Assembly: GCA_944391735.1 (NCBI GenBank) | Contig: CALXUR010000003.1 | Coordinates: forward strand, 12,287 to 76,286 | Origin: an uncultured Alphaproteobacteria bacterium | Lineage (GTDB): Bacteria; Pseudomonadota; Alphaproteobacteria; CAAHEQ01; UBA3637 | DNA length: 64,000 nt | Direction: 5' to 3' | Part shown: positions 1 to 43,035 of the stretch, piece after piece | Numbering within the stretch: the stretch's first letter is position 1 | How the letters are laid out: every line of letters begins with the position of its first letter | Notes under the pieces: model-generated | Seen by the model: only the letters and a program-made list of their open reading frames with translations | Databases searched by the model: none | Told to the model about the DNA's origin: nothing | Translations under genes and position numbers: made by a program

Positions 1-279
1 CATTTCGGTGCCGGTCGGGTAACATTAAGGACGGCTCCTGCCGGTACGGGTATTATCGCGGGTGGTCCGATGCGTGCTGTTTTTGAAGCCATGGGGATTC
101 AAGATGTTGTTGCCAAGTGCACCGGGTCTTCCAATCCGCACAACATGGTTCGCGCTACTTTTGATGCTTTGGACGGGTTGAATTCACCGCGCAGCGTTGC
201 TGCGAAACGCGGGAAAAAAGTCGGCGATATCGTCGGCCGCCGTGATGGTGAGGCTGCTGCCAAAGAAATCGCAGAATAA
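1..279 (+). CDS. rpsE: 30S ribosomal protein S5, C-terminal part (5' end lies outside the window)
   Basis: Frame 1 is open from base 1. The translation ...[39 protein letters not shown]... matches the conserved S5 C-terminus. Confidence 0.85.
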
Positions 280-290
280 GGAATAGAAAC

Positions 291-824
291 ATGAAACTGA
301 ATGAAATTCGTGATAACAAAGGGGCTCGCAAGCAGTCCATGCGTGTTGCGCGCGGCGTTGGTTCCGGCAAAGGCCGGACCGGCGGGCGTGGCTTTAAAGG
401 TCAGAAATCCCGTACGGGTGTTGCCATCAACGGTTTTGAAGGCGGACAAATGCCGGTTTACCGGCGTGCGCCAAAACGGGGGTTCAACAACATTTTCCGT
501 TTGACTTTTGCCGAAATTAACCTCGGTAGAATTCAAAAGGCGATTGACGACAAGATTTTGGCAGCCGATAAAGAAATCAATGCGATTGCTTTAATGGAGG
601 CCGGTCTGATCAAGAACATGCGTGACGGTATTCGTCTGTTAGGTAACGGTGCGTTTTCGTCCAAGGCTGTCATTCGTGTGACGGGTGCGACGAAGTCGGC
701 GGTTGCCGCGGTTGAAAAAGCGGGCGGACAAGTCATTGTCGAGCCGAAAAAAGAGACTGTTTTGAAAAAAGGTGTCAAGACATCTAAAAAAGAAAAAGCG
801 GTCAAGAAAACAAAAAAAGCGTAA
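291..824 (+). CDS. rplO: 50S ribosomal protein L15 with a Lys-rich C-terminal tail
   Basis: N-terminal [20 protein letters not shown] motif typical of L15. It directly follows rpsE with no rpmD (L30) gene in between. Confidence 0.9.
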
Positions 825-843
825 GATAAGGAGAGAGTGAGCA

Positions 844-2181
844 ATGGTATCGTTGTCAGAAAAAATGGCTTCAAAAATGGATTTTTCGGCTTTTTCGAAA
901 GCCAAGGATTTACAAAAAAGGCTGTTGTTCACTCTTTTCGCGTTGATTATTTTCCGGTTAGGGACGTATGTTCCCTTTCCGGGGATTAATCCGCAGGTGT
1001 TGAACGAATTTTTTTCCAGCAACAGCGGTGGGTTAATCGGTATGTTTAATGCCTTTACGGGGGGTGCTTTATCCCGTATGTCTATTTTTGCCCTGAACAT
1101 TATGCCGTATATTTCTGCCTCCATTATCATTCAATTGGGGGCCAGCGTTATTCCTTCTTTATCCGCTTTGAAAAAAGAAGGTGAATCGGGGATGCGGAAA
1201 ATGAATCAGTATACCCGTTATTTAACGATTTTAATCACGGTTGTGCAGGCGTTTTTCATGGCGCGGGCATTGGAGAGCGGTGGTGCGGTTATTATGCCGT
1301 CTCACGCTATGTTTGAATTATCGACGGTTGTATCTCTTTTAGGAGGAACAATGTTTGTCGTCTGGTTGGGAGAGCAAATCACGGCACGGGGCGTCGGTAA
1401 CGGCACATCATTAATTATTACGGTCGGTATCGTGGCGGGTATGCCGTCTGCCTTGTTACGGATTTTTGAAGAAGGCCGGGCAGGGGCTTTGTCGACAGGG
1501 CTTTTGTTGTTTATTATGGCGTTGGTTTTTGCCGTTATTTATATTGTTGTTATGTTTGAACGGGCTCAACGTCGGATTACGATTCAATACCCGAAACGTC
1601 AAATGGGCAACCGCATGATGCAGGGAATCAGCTCTCACCTGCCGTTAAAAATCAATCCGACAGGGGTGATGCCACCGATTTTTGCCAGTGCCATTTTGGC
1701 TATTCCTGTGGCGATTGTTCAATTTTCAAGTCAAAATTCAACATCCGAGTTTGTGACAAAAATGGCAACGCTTTTAACGCCGGGGCAATGGTTGTATATT
1801 GCGGTTTTTGCCTTTTTGATTGTCTTTTTTACATTCTTTTACACCAGTATTCAGCCGCATTCAAATCCGACGGAAATAGCCGATAGTTTAAAGAAGCAAG
1901 GCGGATTTATTGCGGGGATTCGTCCGGGTAAAAATACGGCGGATTATTTGGATTACGTCATTACACGTTTGACTGTTTTGGGTGCTATTTATCTGACGGT
2001 TTTATGTATTTTACCGGAATTTTTAATTGCAACCTTTAAGGTTCCCTTTTTCTTGGGCGGAACGACATTATTGATTGTTGTATCCGTTACGATGGAGACA
2101 ATGACCCAGATACAATCTCATTTGATTGCGCATCAATATGAAGGCTTAATTAAGAAAGCAAAGCTGAAAGGACGGTTATAA
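844..2181 (+). CDS. secY: Preprotein translocase subunit SecY
   Basis: 445 aa polytopic membrane protein with SecY motifs, in the spc operon position. Confidence 0.95.
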   Translation: MVSLSEKMASKMDFSAFSKAKDLQKRLLFTLFALIIFRLGTYVPFPGINPQVLNEFFSSNSGGLIGMFNAFTGGALSRMSIFALNIMPYISASIIIQLGASVIPSLSALKKEGESGMRKMNQYTRYLTILITVVQAFFMARALESGGAVIMPSHAMFELSTVVSLLGGTMFVVWLGEQITARGVGNGTSLIITVGIVAGMPSALLRIFEEGRAGALSTGLLLFIMALVFAVIYIVVMFERAQRRITIQYPKRQMGNRMMQGISSHLPLKINPTGVMPPIFASAILAIPVAIVQFSSQNSTSEFVTKMATLLTPGQWLYIAVFAFLIVFFTFFYTSIQPHSNPTEIADSLKKQGGFIAGIRPGKNTADYLDYVITRLTVLGAIYLTVLCILPEFLIATFKVPFFLGGTTLLIVVSVTMETMTQIQSHLIAHQYEGLIKKAKLKGRL

Positions 2182-33460: not shown

Positions 33461-33536
<76 letters not shown>

Positions 33537-33542
33537 AATTTA

Positions 33543-33573
33543 AGAGGGTTTGATAAACCCTCTTTTTTATTTT
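33543..33573 (+). terminator. Rho-independent terminator after tRNA-Ala
   Basis: AGAGGGTT-tgat-AAACCCTCT followed by T6. Confidence 0.6.
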
Positions 33574-33657
33574 GGAAGTTAAGCTTTTTTGACAGATCAA
33601 GCTGAAAAGAGATTATTTTTATAAGTCGTTCTATTTAAAATAAAAGATAAAATTTAT

Positions 33658-33686
33658 TTGACTTTGGTATTGAACGAACGTATAAC
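33658..33686 (+). promoter_or_regulatory. Promoter of island gene 33706
   Basis: TTGACT, 17 nt spacer, TATAAC. The same element recurs at 34588-34616. Confidence 0.5.
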
Positions 33687-33705
33687 GGATAAAAAGGGAT
33701 AAGTC

Positions 33706-34158
33706 ATGAAATATATTCTGATTTTAACATTACTGTTGATGAGTGTATCCGCTGGTGCGGTGACAGTTGAGGATATGTCAGAAGCACGAAAGCAAGCAGA
33801 GTTTGAGGCACGTGCGATAGATAAGATTTGTTGGAACGAGGCATTTAAAGATAAGCCGGATACGACAAGAGCTATGTGGGCGGCAGCGGTGCGGAACACA
33901 GACTGCTTATATAAGGAGATAGAAAAACAGGTAAAGCTGGCTTTTTTACCACAGGATCATGAAAAGATGATGGTGTTAATTCATGCAGCCGGTAAAAATA
34001 TAGCGGATATTTACTTTGAGATGCATACCAGTAACCGGTATTGTTACGGGCATTGCGGAACTATGAATAACATCACGCATACGGTGAATGAAATGGAGTT
34101 TTTAATTGGCGTGTTAACAGATTTAATTTTGATGAACAGGATAAAAGACAGTGTATGA
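33706..34158 (+). CDS. Small secreted Cys-containing protein (150 aa), copy 1. Candidate periplasmic immunity protein or lysozyme inhibitor.
   Basis: Signal peptide MKYILILTLLLMSVSAGA. Conserved Cys including CYGHCGTM. Paralogous to 34635..35087. Convergent with a GH108 toxin remnant. Confidence 0.5.
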   Translation: MKYILILTLLLMSVSAGAVTVEDMSEARKQAEFEARAIDKICWNEAFKDKPDTTRAMWAAAVRNTDCLYKEIEKQVKLAFLPQDHEKMMVLIHAAGKNIADIYFEMHTSNRYCYGHCGTMNNITHTVNEMEFLIGVLTDLILMNRIKDSV

Positions 34159-34207
34159 TTATAATAAATATATTTTCGGGAGGGGTTAAACCTCCCGAAT
34201 GAACTAT

Positions 34208-34530
34208 TTACTATTTAATTAAAGATTTTTCAAATCGTTTTTTCCAACCATATCCGAATTTAATTTGATTGGATATGGGTTGTTTTTTTATGTCAGAAAA
34301 ACGTTGTCGGACAATATAATTGTTGACGTCTTTCATTTGTTGAAGAGTTAAATTGTTCAGGGCATTAATAGTTTGAGATCCCATGACACCGTCTTCATCC
34401 ACTTGAAAAGAAGTGAATTGATTAATACCTTGTTGCGCCCATTGGATCGGCTCTGTCAGCGACAACGGCAGGTATTGATTCGCATTAACCGTTAAGGCGG
34501 GTTGCGGAATGGTTGGTTTTGATAGATAAA
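34208..34530 (-). pseudogene. 3' remnant of a GH108/PG_binding_3 toxin gene. Track ORF 34211..34465 covers the C-terminal 84 aa.
   Basis: About 88% DNA identity to the 3' end of 35098..36360. Upstream remnant sequence 34466-34530 (ggtattgattcgcattaaccgttaaggcgggttgcggaatggt) matches an internal part of the full gene near 35943-36010. This indicates an internal deletion. Confidence 0.55.
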
Positions 34531-34587
34531 GCTAAAAAGAAATCGTCTTTATAAACCGGTATATTGAAAATAAAAGATACAAATTAT

Positions 34588-34616
34588 TTGACTTTGATGT
34601 TGAACGAAAGTATAAC
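34588..34616 (+). promoter_or_regulatory. Promoter of island gene 34635, a duplicate of 33658-33686
   Basis: TTGACT, 17 nt spacer, TATAAC. Confidence 0.5.
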
Positions 34617-34634
34617 GGATAAAAAAGGCGAGTC

Positions 34635-35087
34635 ATGAAATATATTCTGATTTTAACATTACTGTTGATGAGTGTATCCGTTGATGCAGCGGAAAAGGAA
34701 GAAGTGTGTGACACGTTGGAATGTGCGAAGGCTCAAGCGCATCACATTGGAAAAACGTGTTGGGATGAGGCGTATAAGGATGATCCGTATTCGACAGCGG
34801 AGATGCGCCGAGCCGATTTTAATGCAAATGATTGCATGTATAAAGCGGTGGAGGAGCAAGTCAGGCAAGCTTTTGAACCGACCGAGCAAGAGCAGGTTTT
34901 AGAATGGATTATGACAGGGTGGCGTGGGGTCAGTCAAACATACTGGATGATTTTTAACAATAATAAATATTGTTACGGTCGTTGTGGAACAATGCAACAT
35001 TTACGAAATACTCCTTTTGAAGCTCAATTTTTAGAGCAGGTTTTGGCTTGGTTAATTCATGCAAATGCAAAGAAAGGGAGTATTTAA
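34635..35087 (+). CDS. Small secreted Cys-containing protein (150 aa), copy 2
   Basis: Same signal peptide as copy 1. CYGRCGTM. Convergent with the intact GH108 toxin gene. Confidence 0.5.
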   Translation: MKYILILTLLLMSVSVDAAEKEEVCDTLECAKAQAHHIGKTCWDEAYKDDPYSTAEMRRADFNANDCMYKAVEEQVRQAFEPTEQEQVLEWIMTGWRGVSQTYWMIFNNNKYCYGRCGTMQHLRNTPFEAQFLEQVLAWLIHANAKKGSI

Positions 35088-35097
35088 CTCCCTTCCT

Positions 35098-36360
35098 TTA
35101 TTTGATAAAGTGACGTTCGCTTCTGGTTGTCAGACCTTTTCGGCGGGTTCCGTATCCGGCTGGGTTTGCGTCAGCGTATTGGTTTATTTGTCCGGAACGT
35201 TGTCGGACAATATAATTGTTGACTTCTTTCATTTGTTGAAGGGTCAAATTATTAAGGGCATTAATGGTTTGTGATCCCATGATGCCGTCTTCATCTACTT
35301 GAAAAGAAGTCAATTGATTAATACCTTGTTGCACCCATTGAATCGGCTCTATCGGAGAATGGTTTGCCAAAAGGTCAAATAAGGTCTTGGCTAACTTTTC
35401 ATTTTTAATTTCTTCAATGCGGTAGGCATCGTAATAATCCATTTTATAAATGGTTGTTGCCTGATCCCTTGTTAAATCCTTAACGGTAGCGGGATATGTT
35501 CTTCCCAAAGTCGGATGGGCCGCTTTAAAACGATTTAATGAACCTTGAATAACACCCATATTGGTCGGTTGATCTATTCTAGTCGGTCTATCTTCATAAC
35601 CGCCCTCTTCCTGATAGACAGATGACAACAGGCGATCAAAACGGGTGGTGGAACCGTAGCCCAAAAGTTCATTCATCTTATCGACCGTCAGGTCATCGGG
35701 GCGCAAAATGCCGGTTCTATCCAAACCGTTATCTCGTTGAAAAGCCGAAATGCCGTCAAACAGTTGTTGGTCGGGATAGGGGGTTATTCCCTCTGACTCC
35801 GGCAGGTAATAGCCCAAGTCGTATAAGGCCTCTTTTGTCGAGATAACGTCTGTGGGAGAGGCGAAAGAGGGGCTGACGGATTGTGTGATAAAAAAGCCCT
35901 GCGCGTCGGTATTGTTATCTGTTAAAAAGTTCGGTTTTATCGGTGGTAACGACGGGTATTGATTTGCATCAACCGTTACGGACGGTTGCGAAATGGTCGG
36001 CTTTTGATAATAATTCGGCGCGGGCAGAGAGTTTAAATCCCGAAAGGCTCGATTTAACAATTTTTCGTTTTCTCGGGCATTTTTTTCGGCACGTTTGCTT
36101 TGGCTTGTTTCTTCCCTATTTTTTTGCTGTGCTTCTTTTTCATCATGGTCTTGTCCGCAGATGCGGTTATAGGGTTTGACATGCTTACCCTTTCGCATAT
36201 GGCCGGGAACGTGAATGAGTTTTTGGCAATGTCCGGATGTGTCGTGTCCTTTGGAACTGAGTTGTCGCTTCGGGATAATTTGTGCCTGTCCCGTGAAAGA
36301 GCTCAGGTTTTGTAATATTTTGGCGATATTGATAAATGCGGTAAGAGATTTTTGATCCAT
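35098..36360 (-). CDS. Polymorphic toxin-like protein: conserved His/Cys-rich N-terminal domain, S/T/P/Q-rich linker, GH108 lysozyme-like domain and PG_binding_3
   Basis: N-terminal GHDTSGHCQKLIHVPGHMRKGKHVKPYNRICGQDHDEKEAQQKN is shared with 38438..38773, 40284..41024 and 36841..37245. The C-terminal half has the EEGGYEDR...DQPTNMGVIQ catalytic block of glycoside hydrolase family 108 and a DEDGIMGSQTINALN PG-binding segment. Start taken as Met18 of the track ORF (RBS AAAGGAAAAGC). Confidence 0.6.
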   Translation of the reverse strand: MDQKSLTAFINIAKILQNLSSFTGQAQIIPKRQLSSKGHDTSGHCQKLIHVPGHMRKGKHVKPYNRICGQDHDEKEAQQKNREETSQSKRAEKNARENEKLLNRAFRDLNSLPAPNYYQKPTISQPSVTVDANQYPSLPPIKPNFLTDNNTDAQGFFITQSVSPSFASPTDVISTKEALYDLGYYLPESEGITPYPDQQLFDGISAFQRDNGLDRTGILRPDDLTVDKMNELLGYGSTTRFDRLLSSVYQEEGGYEDRPTRIDQPTNMGVIQGSLNRFKAAHPTLGRTYPATVKDLTRDQATTIYKMDYYDAYRIEEIKNEKLAKTLFDLLANHSPIEPIQWVQQGINQLTSFQVDEDGIMGSQTINALNNLTLQQMKEVNNYIVRQRSGQINQYADANPAGYGTRRKGLTTRSERHFIK

Positions 36361-36495
36361 GCTTTTCCTTTCAATAAAAAAAGCCCGCCGCAAGAGATTC
36401 CGGACAGGCATAAAAAAATCGGGATATACTTGTCCCGATTAACTAAAAAAAGTATAGCATAAATTAAATGAAAAGTCAAGGAATATTTTCCTATT
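36361..36495. repeat. Conserved 5' leader/promoter element of the toxin genes, copy R1. Other copies: 37261-37388, 38774-38918, 41025-41165.
   Basis: AATAAAAAAGCC(C/T)G(C/T)CG..AGATTCCGGACAGGCATAAAAAAATCGGGATAC recurs immediately upstream of every toxin start codon. R1 and R4 also share AAAAGTCAAGGAATATTTTCCTAT. Confidence 0.6.
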
Positions 36496-36556
36496 TTTGA
36501 TTTGTAAATGACTCCTTTTATATTCGTTGGGAAGAACAACGGGATTAAGAAGAGGG

Positions 36557-36796
36557 CTATTTCGGGTTTACGGGATAGAAACGGCATATTTGTTTTTCTA
36601 TATCCCAAACACCTCGGCCATAGCAAGTGTCTTCATTAACAACGCATTCAGTTCCCCAATCACAGTGCGCAAATATAAATCCCTTGGGACAAATACCACC
36701 CGAGAGACAATCATCCTCCCGTAAATCTATATAAGTCATAAGAGCGACTGTCACTATGGTAAAAACTGTCAAACACATAAAAAAGAAAAACTTCAT
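36557..36796 (-). CDS. Small secreted Cys-rich protein (79 aa, 8 Cys). Candidate immunity protein downstream of the decayed toxin 36841..37245.
   Basis: Signal peptide MKFFFFMCLTVFTIVTVAL. Same strand as the toxin remnant and directly 3' of it. Confidence 0.4.
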   Translation of the reverse strand: MKFFFFMCLTVFTIVTVALMTYIDLREDDCLSGGICPKGFIFAHCDWGTECVVNEDTCYGRGVWDIEKQICRFYPVNPK

Positions 36797-36840
36797 GTTA
36801 AAATGATATCAAGAATTTTTTTTGAAAGCAAGAGTGAAGT

Positions 36841-37245
36841 CTAATATTTCAAAGGTAAGCCTGATGGTCTGAAAATGCCACAGCTTTCACTTAATGTTTT
36901 TCCTTTATTGGCTCCCCGCAATCCGGAAATATTTGCTTTCATGTCAGATAAACTTTCATTAGGACCATATTTAAAAACATCTTTACTTTCTTTTAACAGA
37001 GATAACAGAAGGCCTACTAGGTTACCGTAGACACCCCGTGAACCGGCTTCATAGTTTGCTTTACAGTGAAAGTATTTATCTCCGCCGATAAAATTAGTTT
37101 TATTCATATCATTAAAATTTCGGATGAAATCTTTGAGCGGTGCAAATAGTCCGGTCGTTGTTTTTTCCGCTTGATTTTTTTATTGAGCTTCTTTTTCGTC
37201 GGGTGCTGGCACACCGATTGCATTTCCGATGGGTTCTGTTTCCAT
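36841..37245 (-). pseudogene. Decayed toxin paralog: the N-terminal domain carries an internal in-frame deletion and a CAA-to-TAA nonsense codon (37180-37182). The C-terminal small domain is of unknown function.
   Basis: METEPIGNAIGVPAPDE joins directly to KEAQ(*)KNQAEK, with the central roughly 55 codons missing. The same frame continues into track ORF 36841..37107 (FIGGDKYFHCKANYEAGSRG...). Confidence 0.5.
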
Positions 37246-37478
37246 GATCTTTTTCCTTTCAATAAAAAAGCCCGCCGCAAGAGATTCCGGACAGGCATAA
37301 AAAAATCGGGATACACTTTTATTTTAAAAAACTTGTTTTTTACTTTTGAAATTGATAGAATTGTATAAAGGTTTAAAGAGGATATCTAATGAAATATGTA
37401 TTTGGAATTATTTTGGGATTGTTTTTGGTTTCTTGTCAAACACAAGAACCGGTTCAATTTAAAAATCCGATTTTTTAT
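37195..37478. repeat. Duplicated module of about 285 bp: toxin N-terminus, leader, divergent intergenic region and lipoprotein N-terminus. Second copy at 38725-39008.
   Basis: Near-identical stretches from CGTCG(G/A)GTG..CACCGATTGCATTTCCGATGGGTTCTGTTTCCATGATCTTTTTCC through ...CAATTTAAAAATCCGATTTT. Confidence 0.6.
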
Positions 37479-37772
37479 GAAACACTTTATCCTATTTCCA
37501 AGACGGTTCGGGAGACGCGATTGACACCGACGAAGATATATGTGAATGCATTTATTTCGGAAAAAGAGTGTCGATTGCTAAAGAATACCGAGACCGTTTT
37601 GGAGTTTTCCTGTGAATACGACCATCCGTTCAGCGGGCATTTTTCGGATGTATTTTATCGGTATGTTATTGAAGGGGAGGAATCAAAATATACCAATTGT
37701 TTGATTGTTAGGTTGGAAATGCCCGGTGGAACAGCCTGGTTTTGTATTCACCGAGAAAAACCACAGGATTAA
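37389..37772 (+). CDS. Lipoprotein (127 aa), island-associated. Candidate immunity protein.
   Basis: MKYVFGIILGLFLVSCQTQEPVQFKNPIF lipobox. The N-terminal 30 aa are identical to 38919..39389. Convergent with the lysozyme-like toxin domain gene. Confidence 0.55.
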   Translation: MKYVFGIILGLFLVSCQTQEPVQFKNPIFYETLYPISKTVRETRLTPTKIYVNAFISEKECRLLKNTETVLEFSCEYDHPFSGHFSDVFYRYVIEGEESKYTNCLIVRLEMPGGTAWFCIHREKPQD

Positions 37773-37829
37773 GAATGTGATCGTTGCATATCGACTATTT
37801 GACTACTCGGCTGAAGATATATAGTGCAA

Positions 37830-38773
37830 CTATTTGTTTCTATATTTACAAGGAGAATAAAACCATCCATTGATTAATGGAATTTCCCGTAAAGTATTTC
37901 TGGCCCAATCATTGCGGGTTTTTCCGACCTGATATCTATTTACCTCGTTAATCATTTGAAAAACATTTTTTTTGTTAACGCCCTCAAAGAAAAAATGCCA
38001 TTTTTCAGAATTAAAATTGTGCCCCATATTATATTGCATGTCTAATAAAACCATTTGTAGCGTTCTGGGATATGTTTCAAATGCCGGAAATTTTGATTCT
38101 AATTCAGCTAAGTCATTTCCCAAATGTTCCATTGTTTTATCAATAATTGTGTGTTCGGATAGAGTTAGTTCTTGGGAATGATTTGTTACACGGAAGTCTT
38201 CTGAAGTATAATTTTTTCCAAATATTTTCTGTTTTTGAAAATCCAAGAGTCGTTTATATTCGCCTAGTTTTTGCTCGGTTGTAGCCTCTTTTCCTTGATA
38301 CATCCAGGGGAGTGATATAAAGGTTTTTTGATTCGGAATATATAACCCGCTGGCGGCTGTTATCTTTCCCAATGTATCCAAATAGGCATAATTGATTGAT
38401 CCTTCATGTTTTTTTAGATATGGCCAGTATGCTTGAATTAATTCATCATATTTTCGTTGTTTTTTTTAGATACAGTTTCTTTTTGAGAAAGTGTTTCTTT
38501 GTTAACTTTTTCCGCTTGGTTTTCTTGTTGAGCTTCTTTTTCGTCATGGTCACGGCCACAGGTGCGGTTATAGGCGTTGACGGGTTTGCCTTCGCGGCTA
38601 TGAGCGGGAACATGTATCATTTTTTGACAATGCCCCGATGTGTCGTGTCCGTTTTGAGAATTATCGCTGTTTCCGAACAGAAAAGCGAATAGATTTTGTC
38701 GGTTATTATTGACTTGGTTGTTTTCGTCGAGTGTCGGTACACCGATTGCATTTCCGATGGGTTCTGTTTCCAT
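37830..38773 (-). pseudogene. Toxin paralog split by a frameshift at a T8/A8 homopolymer: N-terminal conserved domain (38438..38773) and T4-lysozyme-like C-terminal domain (37830..38381)
   Basis: The N-domain ORF stops 20 codons after the A8 run. The downstream ORF frame is open from immediately after the run. Inserting one A fuses them. The C-terminal domain has LLDMQYNMG...NRYQVGKTRNDWARNTL, resembling the phage/T4 lysozyme (GH24) C-terminal lobe. Confidence 0.55.
38460..38467. repeat. T8 homopolymer (A8 on the coding strand) at the frameshift site
   Basis: gttg-TTTTTTTT-agat. A +1 slippage restores a roughly 310-aa open reading frame. Confidence 0.6.
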
Positions 38774-38918
38774 GATCTTTTTCCCTTCAATAAAAAAAAG
38801 CCTGCCGCAAGAGATTCCGGACAGGCATAAAAAAATCGGGATACACTTTTATTTTAAAAAACTTGTTTTTTACTTTTGAAATTGATAGAATTGTATAAAG
38901 GTTTAAAGAGGATATCTA

Positions 38919-39389
38919 ATGAAATATGTATTTGGAATTATTTTGGGATTGTTTTTGGTTTCTTGTCAAACACAAGAACCGGTTCAATTTAAAAATCCGA
39001 TTTTTAATAAAAAACTAGAAGCTATTTCCAAAATTCTTAATGATGTAAAAATAACTCCGACAGAAATTATAGATCTAAAGGATCCGGAGGTATTACCGGC
39101 AACGTGTGAGTTATTGTCCGATGAAGGATATCGTATTATTATGAAGTGTGTGCAGCCCTATCGAACAATACCGGTGCAAACGGTGTATTACCGTTTTACA
39201 AATATGGGAAAATATGAACCATTCTATTCGTCAGAAAAAAATCTGTGTGAAATTCATCAGGAGCAATGTGATGATATGGATTTTCAAAATTTTTACTCTT
39301 GGGGTGTTTTTGTCGTTCGATTAAACGATGGGGAGGATTGTGGTCCTCAGATGCCTGAAGACCAACTCCCCGAATGGTTGATCAGGTAA
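38919..39389 (+). CDS. Lipoprotein (156 aa), island-associated. Candidate immunity protein.
   Basis: Lipobox LVSC. The C-terminal roughly 90 aa (ATCELLSDEGYRIIMKCVQPYRTIPVQTVYYRFTNMGKYEPFYSSEKNLCEIHQEQCDDMDFQNFYSWGVFVVRLNDGEDCGPQ) are identical to 39445..39912. Confidence 0.55.
   Translation: MKYVFGIILGLFLVSCQTQEPVQFKNPIFNKKLEAISKILNDVKITPTEIIDLKDPEVLPATCELLSDEGYRIIMKCVQPYRTIPVQTVYYRFTNMGKYEPFYSSEKNLCEIHQEQCDDMDFQNFYSWGVFVVRLNDGEDCGPQMPEDQLPEWLIR
39081..39350. repeat. 270-bp direct repeat at near-100% identity. Second copy at 39610-39879.
   Basis: Identical from GATCCGGAGGTATTACCGGCAACGTGTGAG through GAGGATTGTGGTCCTCAG. It encodes the shared C-terminal part of the two lipoproteins. Confidence 0.6.
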
Positions 39390-39444
39390 ATGTTATCTTC
39401 TATTTTATGATTGAGGTAATTATATAAAGTTTTAAAGAGAGTAT

Positions 39445-39912
39445 TTGATGAAGCATGTGTTCGGGGTTATTTTGAGTGTGTTCTTGGTTGCTTGTCAAAC
39501 GCAAGAAGCGGTTCAATTTAAAAACCCGGTTTTTAATAGAAAGTTGGCATCAAATGTGAGTATGGATTACGATATTGTGATAACGCCGAGAATCATGGTC
39601 ACTTTAAATGATCCGGAGGTATTACCGGCAACGTGTGAGTTATTGTCCGATGAAGGATATCGTATTATTATGAAGTGTGTGCAGCCCTATCGAACAATAC
39701 CGGTGCAAACGGTGTATTACCGTTTTACAAATATGGGAAAATATGAACCATTCTATTCGTCAGAAAAAAATCTGTGTGAAATTCATCAGGAGCAATGTGA
39801 TGATATGGATTTTCAAAATTTTTACTCTTGGGGTGTTTTTGTCGTTCGATTAAACGATGGGGAGGATTGTGGTCCTCAGGCACCTAAGGACCAACTTCCC
39901 GAATGGTTTTGA
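39445..39912 (+). CDS. Lipoprotein (155 aa), tandem paralog of 38919..39389 with a divergent N-terminal third
   Basis: MMKHVFGVILSVFLVACQTQEAVQFKNPVF lipobox. The C-terminus is identical to the upstream paralog. Confidence 0.55.
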   Translation: MMKHVFGVILSVFLVACQTQEAVQFKNPVFNRKLASNVSMDYDIVITPRIMVTLNDPEVLPATCELLSDEGYRIIMKCVQPYRTIPVQTVYYRFTNMGKYEPFYSSEKNLCEIHQEQCDDMDFQNFYSWGVFVVRLNDGEDCGPQAPKDQLPEWF

Positions 39913-39936
39913 TTATACTATTTTTATTTTTTTGTT

Positions 39937-40251
39937 TTAAAGAGTAAAAGCTAAATATATATTCAACCCGATAAAATACAAAAGCGGATAACTTAATATT
40001 ATAACGGATTGCCACGGTTGTTGGTGATGACGCAGTCGTGCATACCATAAACAAAGGATAATCAGTATTGCTTCGGTTAAGTTGACTACAGTATAGTTAA
40101 GGGGATGATGATACATCCAACCTAAATTATCCGCTTGCCAGGGTATTTCCGGATTGGCAATATCTTGGAAACACCCGATAAAGAGAAAGCCTGTCAGAAA
40201 GATATTAAAAGCGGCAAGTAAAAAAAATAGAATGCGTTGAATATATTTCAT
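39937..40251 (-). CDS. Small polytopic membrane protein (104 aa). Candidate immunity protein directly downstream of the Tlde1-like toxin.
   Basis: Three predicted TM segments. Same strand as 40284..41024, 32 nt downstream. Confidence 0.45.
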   Translation of the reverse strand: MKYIQRILFFLLAAFNIFLTGFLFIGCFQDIANPEIPWQADNLGWMYHHPLNYTVVNLTEAILIILCLWYARLRHHQQPWQSVIILSYPLLYFIGLNIYLAFTL

Positions 40252-40283
40252 AATATTAATACTATCATCTTTTAAAAAAATGT

Positions 40284-41024
40284 CTAGTATTTAACTTGAA
40301 CAATAACATCATATCCATTATTTTGAAACCATTTTGCAAAATCAGCCATTGCCTTTGTTAGATCAATACATCCGGCAGAACCTGGCGTTAAGCCTCCATG
40401 AATAGAAAAATTATTTCTTCCATATAGATTAGTATCATTCGCTGGTGTTAACCAAATGCGTTGTTCTCCCCATGCAGCTGTTCCACCTCTCCACTGTCCG
40501 CCACCTATTGAAGACTTAAATTTTTGCCATGCTCCCAAATTTTCCCACTTTTGAAAATCGCTGATTTTTGCAACATAATTGTCTTCGGGAAGTGGACCAT
40601 AATTTTTTAAATCCTGATAATTTGGATGTTGAAAGCCCGGTCGTCCGGATACACCTTTCCATTCCTTAATAATTTCTCCATTTTCGTGCAGGGTAAGACT
40701 TTTACCATTAAAAGATAAATACTGCCCATTTTTTAGGTTTAATGGAGTATTCCATTGTGTATATGGATTATTTTTTTGTTGAGCCTCTTTTTCGTCGTGG
40801 TTACGGCCGCAGATGCGTTCATAGGCGTTGACGGGTTTGCCTTCGCGGCTATGAGCGGGAACATGTATCATTTTTTGACAATGCCCCGATGTGTCGTGTC
40901 CGTTTTGAGAATTGTCGCTGTTTCCGAACAGAAAAGCGAATAGATTTTGTTGACTGTTATTTCTCGGATTGTTTTCGTCGGGTGCTGGCACACCGATTGC
41001 ATTTCCGATGGATTGTGTTTCCAT
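40284..41024 (-). CDS. Polymorphic toxin-like protein: conserved His/Cys-rich N-terminal domain and Tlde1/DUF2778-like (YkuD L,D-transpeptidase-fold) C-terminal domain
   Basis: N-terminus METQSIGNAIGVPAPDENN...NGHDTSGHCQKMIHVPAHSREGKPVNAYERICGRNHDEKEAQQKN. C-terminus has ...GRPGFQHPNYQDLKNYGPLPEDNYV and FSIHGGLTPGSAGCIDL (His...SxGC catalytic motif of the YkuD/Tlde1 family). Confidence 0.6.
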   Translation of the reverse strand: METQSIGNAIGVPAPDENNPRNNSQQNLFAFLFGNSDNSQNGHDTSGHCQKMIHVPAHSREGKPVNAYERICGRNHDEKEAQQKNNPYTQWNTPLNLKNGQYLSFNGKSLTLHENGEIIKEWKGVSGRPGFQHPNYQDLKNYGPLPEDNYVAKISDFQKWENLGAWQKFKSSIGGGQWRGGTAAWGEQRIWLTPANDTNLYGRNNFSIHGGLTPGSAGCIDLTKAMADFAKWFQNNGYDVIVQVKY

Positions 41025-41242
41025 GGTCTTTTTCCTTTCAATAAAAAAGCCTGTCGGATCAGATTCCGAACAGGCATTAAAAAAATCGGGATACATTTAT
41101 CCCGATTAACTGAAAGATATCATATCATAAATCAGATTAAAAGTCAAGGAATATTTTCCTATAAATAGAAATATTTTCTTTATTGACTTTTGTCGGGAGG
41201 CGTGAAATACTGAACGAAAGTTGACGATGAAAGGAGAAGGTT

Positions 41243-41887
41243 ATGAAAAAAGTGTTGCTTGGAATCGGATGTTTATTGTTGGGGGCATGTTGTCATTCTT
41301 TACCGGGACAGTTACCGGAAGAGGTTGTATTTGAAAATGTGGATGAGGGGGCTCAGGTCGTTTATATGCCGACCTCGGGCGTTTGGACGCGGGGCGGTAT
41401 GGCGGACGATCGGATTGTTTGCACGCGTCATGTGTCATCCGGAACCGGCAGTTATTCGGAATACGTTTGTTCGGGGCAGCGTTTCGGTTTATCTTCAACA
41501 CAAGAATTTGTTTTGAAGGGCAGGCTTATCGGATACAGTGCGCATACGTTTAAATTTTATGAAACGGTTTTTCGGAACGGTTCTTTTGACACGCGGGAAT
41601 TAACGGTGTCGGCGGTTCAGGATTTGTTTCCCGACATGCGGATTGTGCCCGTATCCGATGTTAAAAAAGGCATTTTAACCGTTCGGCGGTGTGGCAGGGA
41701 TACGGAAGATGTTTTAATTGTGAATGATACGCCCGCCGATTTTTATCGTTATTCGTTTGATCCGCCGGTTAATGCCGGAACGCCGTTTAAATCCATTTTA
41801 ACCATGTCGGCACCTCAAACGGTTGTGCTGTCTCATTTTGATGAGGATACACCGGACTACCCGGCGTTAAGAATACGGATTCAATAA
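41243..41887 (+). CDS. Lipoprotein (214 aa), core-like GC. Divergent from the toxin leader copy R4.
   Basis: MKKVLLGIGCLLLGAC lipobox. Confidence 0.5.
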   Translation: MKKVLLGIGCLLLGACCHSLPGQLPEEVVFENVDEGAQVVYMPTSGVWTRGGMADDRIVCTRHVSSGTGSYSEYVCSGQRFGLSSTQEFVLKGRLIGYSAHTFKFYETVFRNGSFDTRELTVSAVQDLFPDMRIVPVSDVKKGILTVRRCGRDTEDVLIVNDTPADFYRYSFDPPVNAGTPFKSILTMSAPQTVVLSHFDEDTPDYPALRIRIQ

Positions 41888-41919
41888 AAGAGAGTCGGAG
41901 TTAGTTTTCGAGTATCGGA

Positions 41920-43035
41920 CTAAAGCGTGTCATCAGATGGAACGGGGTGGTATTGTCCGCCGGACAAAGGTTGGGAAACACCGGTTGTGTCCGGAAAGGT
42001 AATCGGCAGTTCCATTAGGGAGCGCACCGCCAAAAACGCGTATCCGGCGGCGTCCAGATTATAGTTCGGCATATCCGCTTCCGCAATGGTTTCCGTATTG
42101 TTGCCGAGGGCTTGCTTTAACCACAATACCAACGTCGGATTTAAGGTTCCGCCGCCCGTTAAAATCCATTTAACCGGTTTATCGGGCAAGAAAGCCTGAG
42201 CCCGAACGATACTTTGAACGATAAAAGCCGTCAACGTAGCCGCTCCATCGGCGGGCGAACACCCTTCGACCTGTTCCAAAAGAGGGGTGAAATCGTCTCG
42301 ATCCAAAGTTTTAGGAGGTGGTTGAAGAAGGTAAGGTGTTTTCAGTAAATAATCCAGCAATCTTTGATTGACAGTGCCTTTGGCGGCCCATTGTCCATCG
42401 AAATCCATATCCATGCCGGCATGGCGACGAAGCCAGCGATCCAGAAGCAGACATCCGACGCCGATATCAAAAGCGCGCAGTTCGCCCAACTGTCCGATGA
42501 ATGTGAGGGTTGAAATCCCGCTGAGCGATACAATGCACAGAGGCTTGGGTTGTGTTCGCGTGACAGCCTCCAGGAATGTCGGTAAGACGGGACCGCCCGT
42601 TCCGCCGGCTTTCAAGTCCGTTTGAATGAAACGGTCAATAACCGGAATCTGTAATTTTCGGGCAAGTGTATCGCTGTGTCCCAGGCTGATATCCAATCGA
42701 TCTGCGGTGTGGTGGCGCACGGAATGACCGGAATAACCGCAAATATCGATATGTGGAACATGCCGTGCTGTTTTATTAATCAATTCTTGCGCGACGGCAA
42801 GATGTTCCGCCGTGATACGGTCATCTAATGATTTTAACAGGTTCATGTCCGTGAAATCTTCGGGATATGACAGCTTTAAAATATCATCTCGTAATTCCGG
42901 CGAATAAGGGCGCGTTAGCGTCAGAGGTTCTTCCAAAATATCCAAGCCGTCCGTTTTCAAAATACAGGCGTCGATATAGACGGCGGATGAATCCGAATAA
43001 ATACCGAGAGCTGTTTCAGGTTCCAATGTTTTCAT
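41920..43035 (-). CDS. anmK: Anhydro-N-acetylmuramic acid kinase
   Basis: 371 aa ASKHA-fold sequence with AnmK blocks (DIGVGCLLLDRW, LTGGGT). Confidence 0.8.
   Translation of the reverse strand: MKTLEPETALGIYSDSSAVYIDACILKTDGLDILEEPLTLTRPYSPELRDDILKLSYPEDFTDMNLLKSLDDRITAEHLAVAQELINKTARHVPHIDICGYSGHSVRHHTADRLDISLGHSDTLARKLQIPVIDRFIQTDLKAGGTGGPVLPTFLEAVTRTQPKPLCIVSLSGISTLTFIGQLGELRAFDIGVGCLLLDRWLRRHAGMDMDFDGQWAAKGTVNQRLLDYLLKTPYLLQPPPKTLDRDDFTPLLEQVEGCSPADGAATLTAFIVQSIVRAQAFLPDKPVKWILTGGGTLNPTLVLWLKQALGNNTETIAEADMPNYNLDAAGYAFLAVRSLMELPITFPDTTGVSQPLSGGQYHPVPSDDTL

Follow-up and report, generated by a model that had tools for sequence, protein, structure and literature searches.

The window analyzed here, 64,000 nucleotides of contig CALXUR010000003.1 from an uncultured alphaproteobacterium, carries four minus-strand toxin genes, designated cassettes A to D, of a family whose members join a short Cys/His-rich N-terminal domain, the N-module, to unrelated toxin domains. 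The toxin domains are of four types, Tlde1 (L,D-transpeptidase-like), GH24/pesticin-like lysozyme, GH108 muramidase and prok-SAA (serum-amyloid-A-like), and all of them have their site of action in the periplasm, with the cell wall as target. Constant N-terminal heads on polymorphic toxins are a well-known kind of domain; this particular domain appears to be new. We infer by analogy that the N-module is a delivery determinant, that is, the part that would be recognized when toxin domains unrelated to one another leave the producer and reach the periplasm of a rival cell. The route that we rank first, with a probability of roughly 0.35, is that the N-module would load onto the spike or tube of a type VI secretion system (T6SS) as a clade-specific cargo marker, in the manner of the MIX, RIX, PIX and WHIX domains. 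Residue numbers follow cassette D throughout.

The N-module is conveniently divided into three parts: (i) a disordered polar stretch of about 40 residues, which in several members is rich in Ser, Thr, Asn and Gln and which includes a short aromatic/hydrophobic motif (variants NLFAFLF, SIFSFFL, NLLQxYI, SLTAFINI and SLFTIFQ), (ii) a beta-hairpin knuckle of about 35 residues with the pattern C49-x8-H58-x13-C72-x3-H76, and (iii) a charged helix, EKEAQQKN, that forms the junction with the variable toxin domain. When 14 sequences were aligned, V55, R60, Y68, R70, C72, G73 and H76 were invariant and C49, H54, H58 and G62 were nearly so. Fifteen distinct DNA versions of the module all encoded C49, V55, H58, R60, Y68, R70, C72, G73 and H76, each by two to four synonymous codons, and H54 was replaced by tyrosine in three of the 15. 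Invariant residues specified by varied synonymous codons show purifying selection on the protein rather than homogenization of the DNA. Given the 14-sequence alignment, AlphaFold predicted four short strands plus a helix (residues 78-84), with pLDDT values of 85-91 for residues 50-72 and disorder for residues 1-40. For the full-length Tlde1 toxin, prediction from the single sequence gave no usable model (mean pLDDT 37.8). A preliminary description of the window had proposed a metal-binding fold, and this proposal is plausible, as the invariant residues C49, H58, C72 and H76 lie on a confidently predicted beta-hairpin knuckle. Both the sequence and the predicted fold thus have the four conserved Cys/His residues on beta-hairpin knuckles that are expected of a zinc knuckle or ribbon, and the module probably binds one zinc ion. 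It resembles zinc ribbon, zinc knuckle and treble-clef mini-domains in having four invariant ligands on two knuckles beside a beta-hairpin, the last ligand being at the start of a helix. PAAR carries zinc at its tip, and PAAR and PAAR-like (DUF4150) domains are also N-terminal, metal-binding and fused to variable T6SS toxins. However, PAAR is a cone of three beta-sheets of about 95 residues having PAAR motifs, from which the N-module differs in length, motifs and predicted fold, and no Pfam PAAR match was obtained. None of the family members shows a signal peptide, and inspection of the N-termini revealed no double-glycine leader, Tat motif, lipobox or TonB box.

A profile made from the window copies was scored exhaustively with HMMER against 1.84 billion protein cluster representatives and gave 17 matches, 14 of which were genuine (E = 3.5e-51 to 4.7e-5). 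Relatives were found by the profile at E = 1.8e-20 to 4.7e-5, a similarity far beyond chance. The other three matches (P0014, P0016 and P0017) were rejected as long repeat proteins whose scores were summed over many weak stretches. A search with the toxin domain added two further Tlde1 fusions, P0022 and P0023, for a family of about 16 cluster representatives, all of metagenomic origin. Metagenome-assembled genomes carrying the module are the bin with ERZ28613925 scaffold_72, CASEYR01, GCA_965320695.1 and the bins of ERZ28436107 and ERZ12302850. A search of the literature with the sample and assembly accessions gave no result, and labels such as SHIW14 and TONG22 may point to studies of the rumen or gut. 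The module was N-terminal in every full-length member and was followed by Tlde1 (P0007, P0012, P0022 and P0023), by the GH24/pesticin-like lysozyme domain (P0005, P0006, P0008, P0011 and P0015, of which P0008 and P0011 reached the PF00959 threshold; the lysozyme domains also gave weak pesticin-family matches), by prok-SAA (P0003, P0010 and P0013; PF00277 E-values of 1.1e-17 to 1.3e-16, cassette B included) or by GH108 (P0004). The family has both of the features by which polymorphic toxins are recognized, a constant N-terminus joined to alternative and unrelated C-terminal toxins and, at all loci, a candidate immunity gene adjacent to each toxin.

The 14 N-modules had no significant match in Pfam (best E = 0.088, to an unrelated viral family) or in PHROGs (best E = 0.036), no match in NCBIfam and none among PDB sequences, and no structural neighbor was found. 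The N-module is without a detectable relative in these curated libraries and, from its sequence, appears to be undescribed. The earlier view that it is not PAAR, LXG, DUF4157 or another described trafficking domain is borne out, and the two findings that would have told against that view, a clear hit to a known domain or restriction to a single locus, were not obtained, the relatives in other genomes being fused to the four toxin types. Among GTDB species representatives there was one other carrier, an uncultured alphaproteobacterium having the module at the same chromosomal site (locus L004). Protein-pattern scans of the JGI metagenomes and IMG/VR gave no match to the module, nor did tblastn searches of PLSDB plasmids and GenBank phages. 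Word-indexed protein searches with the 89-residue module or the 14-sequence alignment returned only short partial open reading frames (ORFs) and missed the multidomain members, and are uninformative on distribution. The family is small and restricted to a lineage of uncultured alphaproteobacteria, a very narrow distribution (about 16 representatives in 1.84 billion clusters) that limits its impact. In this poorly known lineage the N-module provides a usable handle in searches for toxins.

Within the window, cassettes A to D lie in a low-GC island at 33.5-41.2 kb (GC 0.355-0.41 versus about 0.45-0.49 outside) that is bordered by a tRNA-Ala(cgc) gene (33461-33536) and by a lipoprotein/AnmK block (41243-43035). 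All four cassettes share a 5' leader, which forms a four-copy repeat family (D7). Cassettes C and D have this leader and the entire N-terminus of about 85 residues in common, their DNA being 90% identical over 278 nt (repeat family D2). Cassette A shares with C and D only the 42-residue core (GHDTSGHCQK...DHDEKEAQQ), at 76-78% identity over 134 nt (repeat family D5), and its first 37 residues (MDQKSLTAFINIAKILQNL...) are unrelated to the start of C and D (METEPIGNAIGVP...). The preliminary description had reported a His/Cys-rich N-terminus common to all toxin paralogs and encoded by nearly identical DNA in three loci. The minus strand does carry the shared element, and the consensus given for it is correct for C and D, but near identity of the DNA was an overstatement for A, which has the core only. 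The inclusion of all paralogs was too strong, as a fourth cassette, B, had been overlooked and lacks the core, and the lysozyme toxin of locus L017 has an unrelated N-terminus.

The live genes of the window are A (GH108) and D (Tlde1), the only cassettes that combine a complete promoter with an intact gene. Cassettes B and C are decaying and have lost the promoter and half of leader hairpin 1. The start codon of cassette A is the ATG at 36360, which is also the start of its near-identical database representative P0004, likewise of 420 residues. In cassette B, a 186-nt deletion between two GACGAAAA direct repeats took out the N-module core, and a CAA-to-TAA change placed an in-frame stop at codon 22, after EKEAQ. 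The same nonsense codon is present in a second strain (L001), and the intact counterpart of this N-module-SAA fusion is P0003. Programmed read-through of the TAA codon was rejected in favor of decay, given that the change is a plain CAA-to-TAA substitution, that the promoter and core are also gone and that an intact P0003 exists elsewhere. The intact orthologue of cassette C is a 302-residue protein of locus L004 (P0005).

The proposed assignment of the N-module to the T6SS draws on its cargo and on precedent. Tlde1 is known solely as a T6SS effector (PMC9638812), and prok-SAA toxins have been tied to T6SS and to MuF (PMC12419801). Close relatives of the Tlde1 domain include Rhs-associated proteins (P0055 and P0041), and each of the four toxin types is either a known or a proposed cargo of the T6SS. 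Short N-terminal markers have been described on orphan polymorphic T6SS effectors, namely RIX (PMC10435454), PIX (10.1101/2023.07.16.549128) and WHIX (PMC12135965). As in those systems, the N-module is a short, clade-restricted constant domain, without a signal peptide, at the N-termini of orphan polymorphic antibacterial effectors having interchangeable toxins and candidate immunity genes, and such effector-immunity pairs often lie apart from the secretion cluster. The module has no sequence similarity to the known markers and is a Cys/His knuckle rather than Arg-rich or helical. Its cassettes also differ from theirs in the convergent immunity genes of some members and in the terminator-rich leader. 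MIX, RIX, PIX and WHIX each opened a class of effectors, and constant N-terminal modules of this kind reveal both effectors and their delivery routes.

Several observations weigh against a T6SS cargo marker. Some 20 kb of DNA surrounding the toxin was inspected in approximately nine independent contexts, as was the whole window, and no gene for Hcp, VgrG, PAAR, TssB/C or an adaptor was found within 10 kb of these loci or anywhere in the 64 kb. The immunity genes of the lysozyme and GH108 cassettes are convergent with their toxins, an arrangement that is uncommon among T6SS effector-immunity pairs, and a promoter of their own, an operator-like palindrome and a double-terminator leader are atypical of T6SS effectors. 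The L017 lysozyme toxin has the regulatory region of the family but an unrelated N-terminus, and so the module is not obligatory. Finally, the putative zinc site has sequence and a predicted fold behind it, and searches for structural neighbors came back empty.

The same neighborhoods were composed of housekeeping genes of alphaproteobacterial type (GapR, TrcR, DUF3126, DciA and similar). The preliminary description had raised the question of which secretion loci co-occur with the module, and no T6SS gene was present in any flank that was read. The only secretion-related gene near any family member encodes a VirD4/TraG-like type IV secretion system (T4SS) coupling protein and lies about 8 kb away from a toxin of the N-module-Tlde1 type (L015 18116-20437 and L016 8621-10942), and its nearness may be coincidental. 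This gene gives some substance to a different export route, in which the N-module would be a signal for a T4SS coupling protein, for a type I secretion system (T1SS)/ABC exporter or for the flagellar export apparatus, would direct packaging into a particle of gene-transfer-agent or phage type, or would address a pathway not yet described. The disordered N-terminal 40 residues, with the polar composition noted above, the flagellar genes found in one genome (L012) and the fusion of prok-SAA toxins elsewhere to MuF head-packaging domains (PMC12419801) are also consistent with export of this sort. However, the bactericidal T4SS and T1SS signals known so far are C-terminal, the cassettes had no consistently linked exporter gene in the contexts read, the VirD4-like gene occurs in a single genomic context, and the module is missing from IMG/VR and phage records. 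We consider such a route unlikely.

The isolation of the cassettes is also what would be expected of bacteriocins, which brings up the possibility that the toxins leave the producer by a means other than a dedicated secretion system, such as lysis of some of the cells, and that the N-module is the import part. The disordered leader would thread through, and the metal-binding knuckle dock on, a nutrient receptor in the outer membrane of the target cell. Models for this are found in the pectocins, whose ferredoxin domain brings cell-wall toxins into the periplasm, and in colicin M and pesticin, whose N-terminal domains do the same. Each locus is a stand-alone toxin-immunity cassette amid housekeeping genes, with no secretion genes found nearby. 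The immunity genes of the lysozyme and GH108 toxins are convergent and on the opposite strand, as is cmi with colicin M, and chromosomal ColM-type genes likewise lack lysis genes (PMC5821083). The order of disordered N-terminus, small folded domain, helical linker and toxin parallels that of colicin M and the pectocins (PMC4671253, PMC3302902), the weak pesticin-family matches of the lysozyme domains point in the same direction, and an operator-like palindrome with two terminators would fit costly, conditional expression. More broadly, pectocins M1, M2 and P and colicin M/pesticin (PMC3302902, PMC4671253, PMC5821083) pair a small metal-binding or disordered N-terminus and a helical linker with a periplasmic cell-wall toxin (lipid-II-targeting or lysozyme-like), and are encoded by stand-alone chromosomal genes without a lysis gene, accompanied by a periplasmic or membrane immunity protein that is often on the opposite strand.

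The likeness to bacteriocins has its limits. The folded part of the N-module is just 35-45 residues or so, far below the size of known receptor-binding domains. The pectocin domain, in contrast, is a [2Fe-2S] ferredoxin of about 95 residues with FusA as its receptor, whereas the N-module has a predicted CHCH site and no recognizable TonB box. Residues 1-40 are predicted to be disordered, and no consistent TonB or TolB box was visible at the N-termini of the members. Tlde1 is unreported in any diffusible bacteriocin, and no candidate receptor was identified. Uptake of this type is, in our judgment, a lesser possibility than T6SS loading, though one to be kept in view. A bolder version, which we consider improbable, is that the promoter, double-terminator leader and CHCH knuckle together define a self-contained and secretion-system-independent class of modular cell-wall-targeting bacteriocins, in which a metal-binding mini-domain of about 40 residues would suffice to bring folded enzymes through the outer membrane of a rival by pirating a receptor for a metal or nutrient, as pectocins do, and antitermination in the leader would gate expression. 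If a knuckle of about 40 residues does suffice for delivery, few known protein-delivery tags would be smaller, and it could serve to direct enzymes to Gram-negative periplasms.

A very short beta-hairpin has also been described on many toxins, prok-SAA and lysozyme toxins included, that lack a signal peptide and secretion linkage. This broken-hairpin domain was proposed by its authors to be the externalization device itself (PMC12419801). Compared by description, it differs from the N-module in being C-terminal and in tending to lack immunity genes, whereas the N-module is N-terminal, has the Cys/His residues and always has immunity-like genes adjacent.

The DNA upstream of every cassette has a constant layout, even where the proteins are just 30-55% identical: a promoter, two tandem hairpins, a Shine-Dalgarno sequence and the start codon. 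The promoter is sigma-70-like (TTGACT-17-TATACT) and is often overlapped by the palindrome GGAAAATATTCC, and each hairpin is followed by a U-run. This regulatory module was seen in the window (36365-36492 and 41031-41160, minus strand) and also at loci L001, L004, L007 and L011-L017. RNAalifold predicted 16 pairs in the leader, nine of which showed compensatory double changes. A covariance model (R1) built from 11 leaders was used to scan 205 kb and gave 17 strong matches (44.7-86.9 bits), each directly upstream of a family toxin, plus an 18th, partial match before the L010 toxin; nothing comparable was found elsewhere in the 205 kb. The leader is absent from Rfam, where only sub-threshold noise was obtained (PyrR at 28.7 bits, the gathering score being 54). 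As a candidate for a new cis-regulatory RNA of the attenuator or antitermination type and a putative control of toxin expression, the leader is of interest separately from the protein module. As a side observation, translation of leader hairpin 2 gives spurious N-terminal extensions of the toxin ORFs (MPVRNLLRRAF...ERK...; minus strand, 36361-36411, 37246-37316 and 41025-41096). The start listed for the cassette A ORF at 36411 is such an artefact, and the public P0003 protein is annotated with a false 18-residue extension.

A search with the promoter and hairpin DNA pattern led to locus L017, where the regulatory module stands before two toxins, one an N-module-SAA fusion and the other a GH24/pesticin-like lysozyme toxin (260-1015, minus strand) whose 77-residue N-terminus lacks the Cys/His core. 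Profile comparison of this N-terminus with the N-module gave no sign of kinship (hhalign probability 0.1). The presence of the leader before different N-terminal heads indicates that the regulatory module is the more general element and that the protein module is common but not obligatory. This bears on the possibility that the N-module has no part in delivery. It would then act in the producer, whether as a cap that aids folding or stability in a metal-dependent way, as an autoinhibitory pro-domain or as a nucleic-acid-binding element giving feedback on its own leader RNA, or it would persist chiefly as a block of homology for recombination. The invariant residues R60, Y68 and R70 beside the CHCH site resemble those of nucleic-acid-binding knuckles, the module is always accompanied by the conserved structured leader RNA, a leader-bearing toxin without the module exists at L017, and the core was easily lost from cassette B through repeat-mediated deletion. 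Purifying selection on the protein down to 30-45% identity is, however, contrary to mere hitch-hiking on DNA homology, enzymes that act in the periplasm need no cytoplasmic inhibitor, and in described polymorphic toxin systems the constant N-terminal modules of variable toxins are trafficking domains (PMC12419801). A role confined to the producer seems to us distinctly unlikely, the least probable of the functions considered.

One chromosomal site, defined by the same flanking genes and extending from the AnmK-adjacent lipoprotein gene to the tRNA-Ala gene/213-residue protein gene, contains one cassette in L004 (9150-12232), three in the sister strain L001 (9137-15146) and four in the window (33461-41243). 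The pseudogenized cassettes differ by strain; the GH108 gene is split in L001 and intact in the window. Toxin cassettes are being stacked, swapped and lost to decay at a chromosomal hot spot. The N-module, together with the upstream promoter and leader, would supply the homology that enables toxin-immunity cassettes to be exchanged and stacked there.

A small gene encoding a signal peptide, lipobox or transmembrane (TM) segment adjoins every toxin at all loci and is the candidate immunity gene. The small gene is convergent, on the opposite strand, for lysozyme and GH108 toxins and is co-directional and downstream for Tlde1 and SAA toxins. The candidate GH108 immunity protein of 150 residues has a paralogue (33706-34158, plus strand), and the arrangement recurs in L001 and L003. 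Imm-SAA proteins are of the TM plus Cys-rich type, and prok-SAA, a polymorphic-toxin tip, is predicted to cut the head groups of lipid carriers (PMC12419801, Burroughs et al. 2025). A TM plus Cys-rich gene similar to that of cassette B lies downstream of the SAA toxin in L017. In L004, the intact lysozyme toxin faces an orthologue of the 127-residue lipoprotein in convergent orientation, and a co-directional gene of 120-131 codons lies behind every Tlde1 member. The features of the window are collected in Table 1.

Table 1. Toxin cassettes, regulatory elements and candidate immunity genes of the window.
Feature	Position	Strand	Remarks
Cassette A toxin, intact, 420 aa	35098..36360	-	N-module, then PG_binding_1 (PF01471, 1.1e-9), then GH108 muramidase (PF05838, 2.8e-13)
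Cassette A His/Cys core, G38-Q79	36124..36249	-	GHDTSGHCQKLIHVPGHMRKGKHVKPYNRICGQDHDEKEAQQ; 76-78% DNA identity to C and D
Cassette A leader, two tandem terminator-like hairpins	36365..36444	-	R1 86.9 bits; compensatory pairs; hairpin 1 listed as terminator-like
Cassette A promoter and palindrome	36451..36492	-	TTGACT-17-TATACT, GGAAAATATTCC; conserved in L004, L007, L011, L012 and L017
Cassette B, degraded prok-SAA toxin	36841..37245	-	PF00277, 1.1e-17
Cassette B partial leader	37252..37324	-	3' half of hairpin 1 plus hairpin 2; no promoter; R1 44.7 bits
Cassette C remnant, GH24/pesticin-like lysozyme domain	37830..38381	-	Out of frame with the N-module; relatives match PF00959
Cassette C N-module ORF, 111 aa, frameshift-terminated	38438..38773	-	Identical to P0001
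Cassette C partial leader	38781..38854	-	No promoter; R1 48.7 bits
Cassette D toxin, intact, 246 aa	40284..41024	-	N-module, then Tlde1 L,D-transpeptidase-like domain (PF10908, 6.1e-9)
Cassette D His/Cys core, G42-Q83	40776..40901	-	C49, H58, C72 and H76 invariant in the family
Cassette D regulatory module	41031..41160	-	Palindrome, promoter TTGACT-17-TATGAT, two-hairpin leader; R1 83.2 bits
Candidate GH108 immunity protein, secreted, 150 aa	34635..35087	+	Signal peptide MKYILILTLLLMSVS; convergent with toxin A
Candidate Imm-SAA immunity protein for cassette B, 79 aa	36557..36796	-	One TM segment plus Cys-rich part; fits the TM plus Imm-SAA description (PMC12419801)
Candidate immunity lipoprotein, 127 aa	37389..37772	+	Lipobox LVSC; convergent with the cassette C lysozyme
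Two paralogous lipoprotein genes, 156 and 155 aa	38919..39389, 39445..39912	+	300-nt repeat (D1), 96% identical
Candidate Tlde1 immunity protein, membrane, 104 aa	39937..40251	-	Directly downstream of toxin D

The paralogous lipoprotein genes at 38919..39912 are probably orphan immunity genes. They form one of two tandem pairs of plus-strand genes for secreted or lipoprotein paralogues (33706-34158 with 34635-35087, and 38919-39389 with 39445-39912; repeat families D1, D9 and D11, up to 96% identical), and both pairs have the appearance of immunity genes, duplicated or orphaned, that survived the loss of their toxins. On the scale of the whole window, GC skew was persistently and strongly positive on the plus strand across positions 1-64000, its cumulative value rising near-monotonically to 4.7, which indicates that the window lies on one replichore with the minus-strand toxin genes on the C-rich strand.

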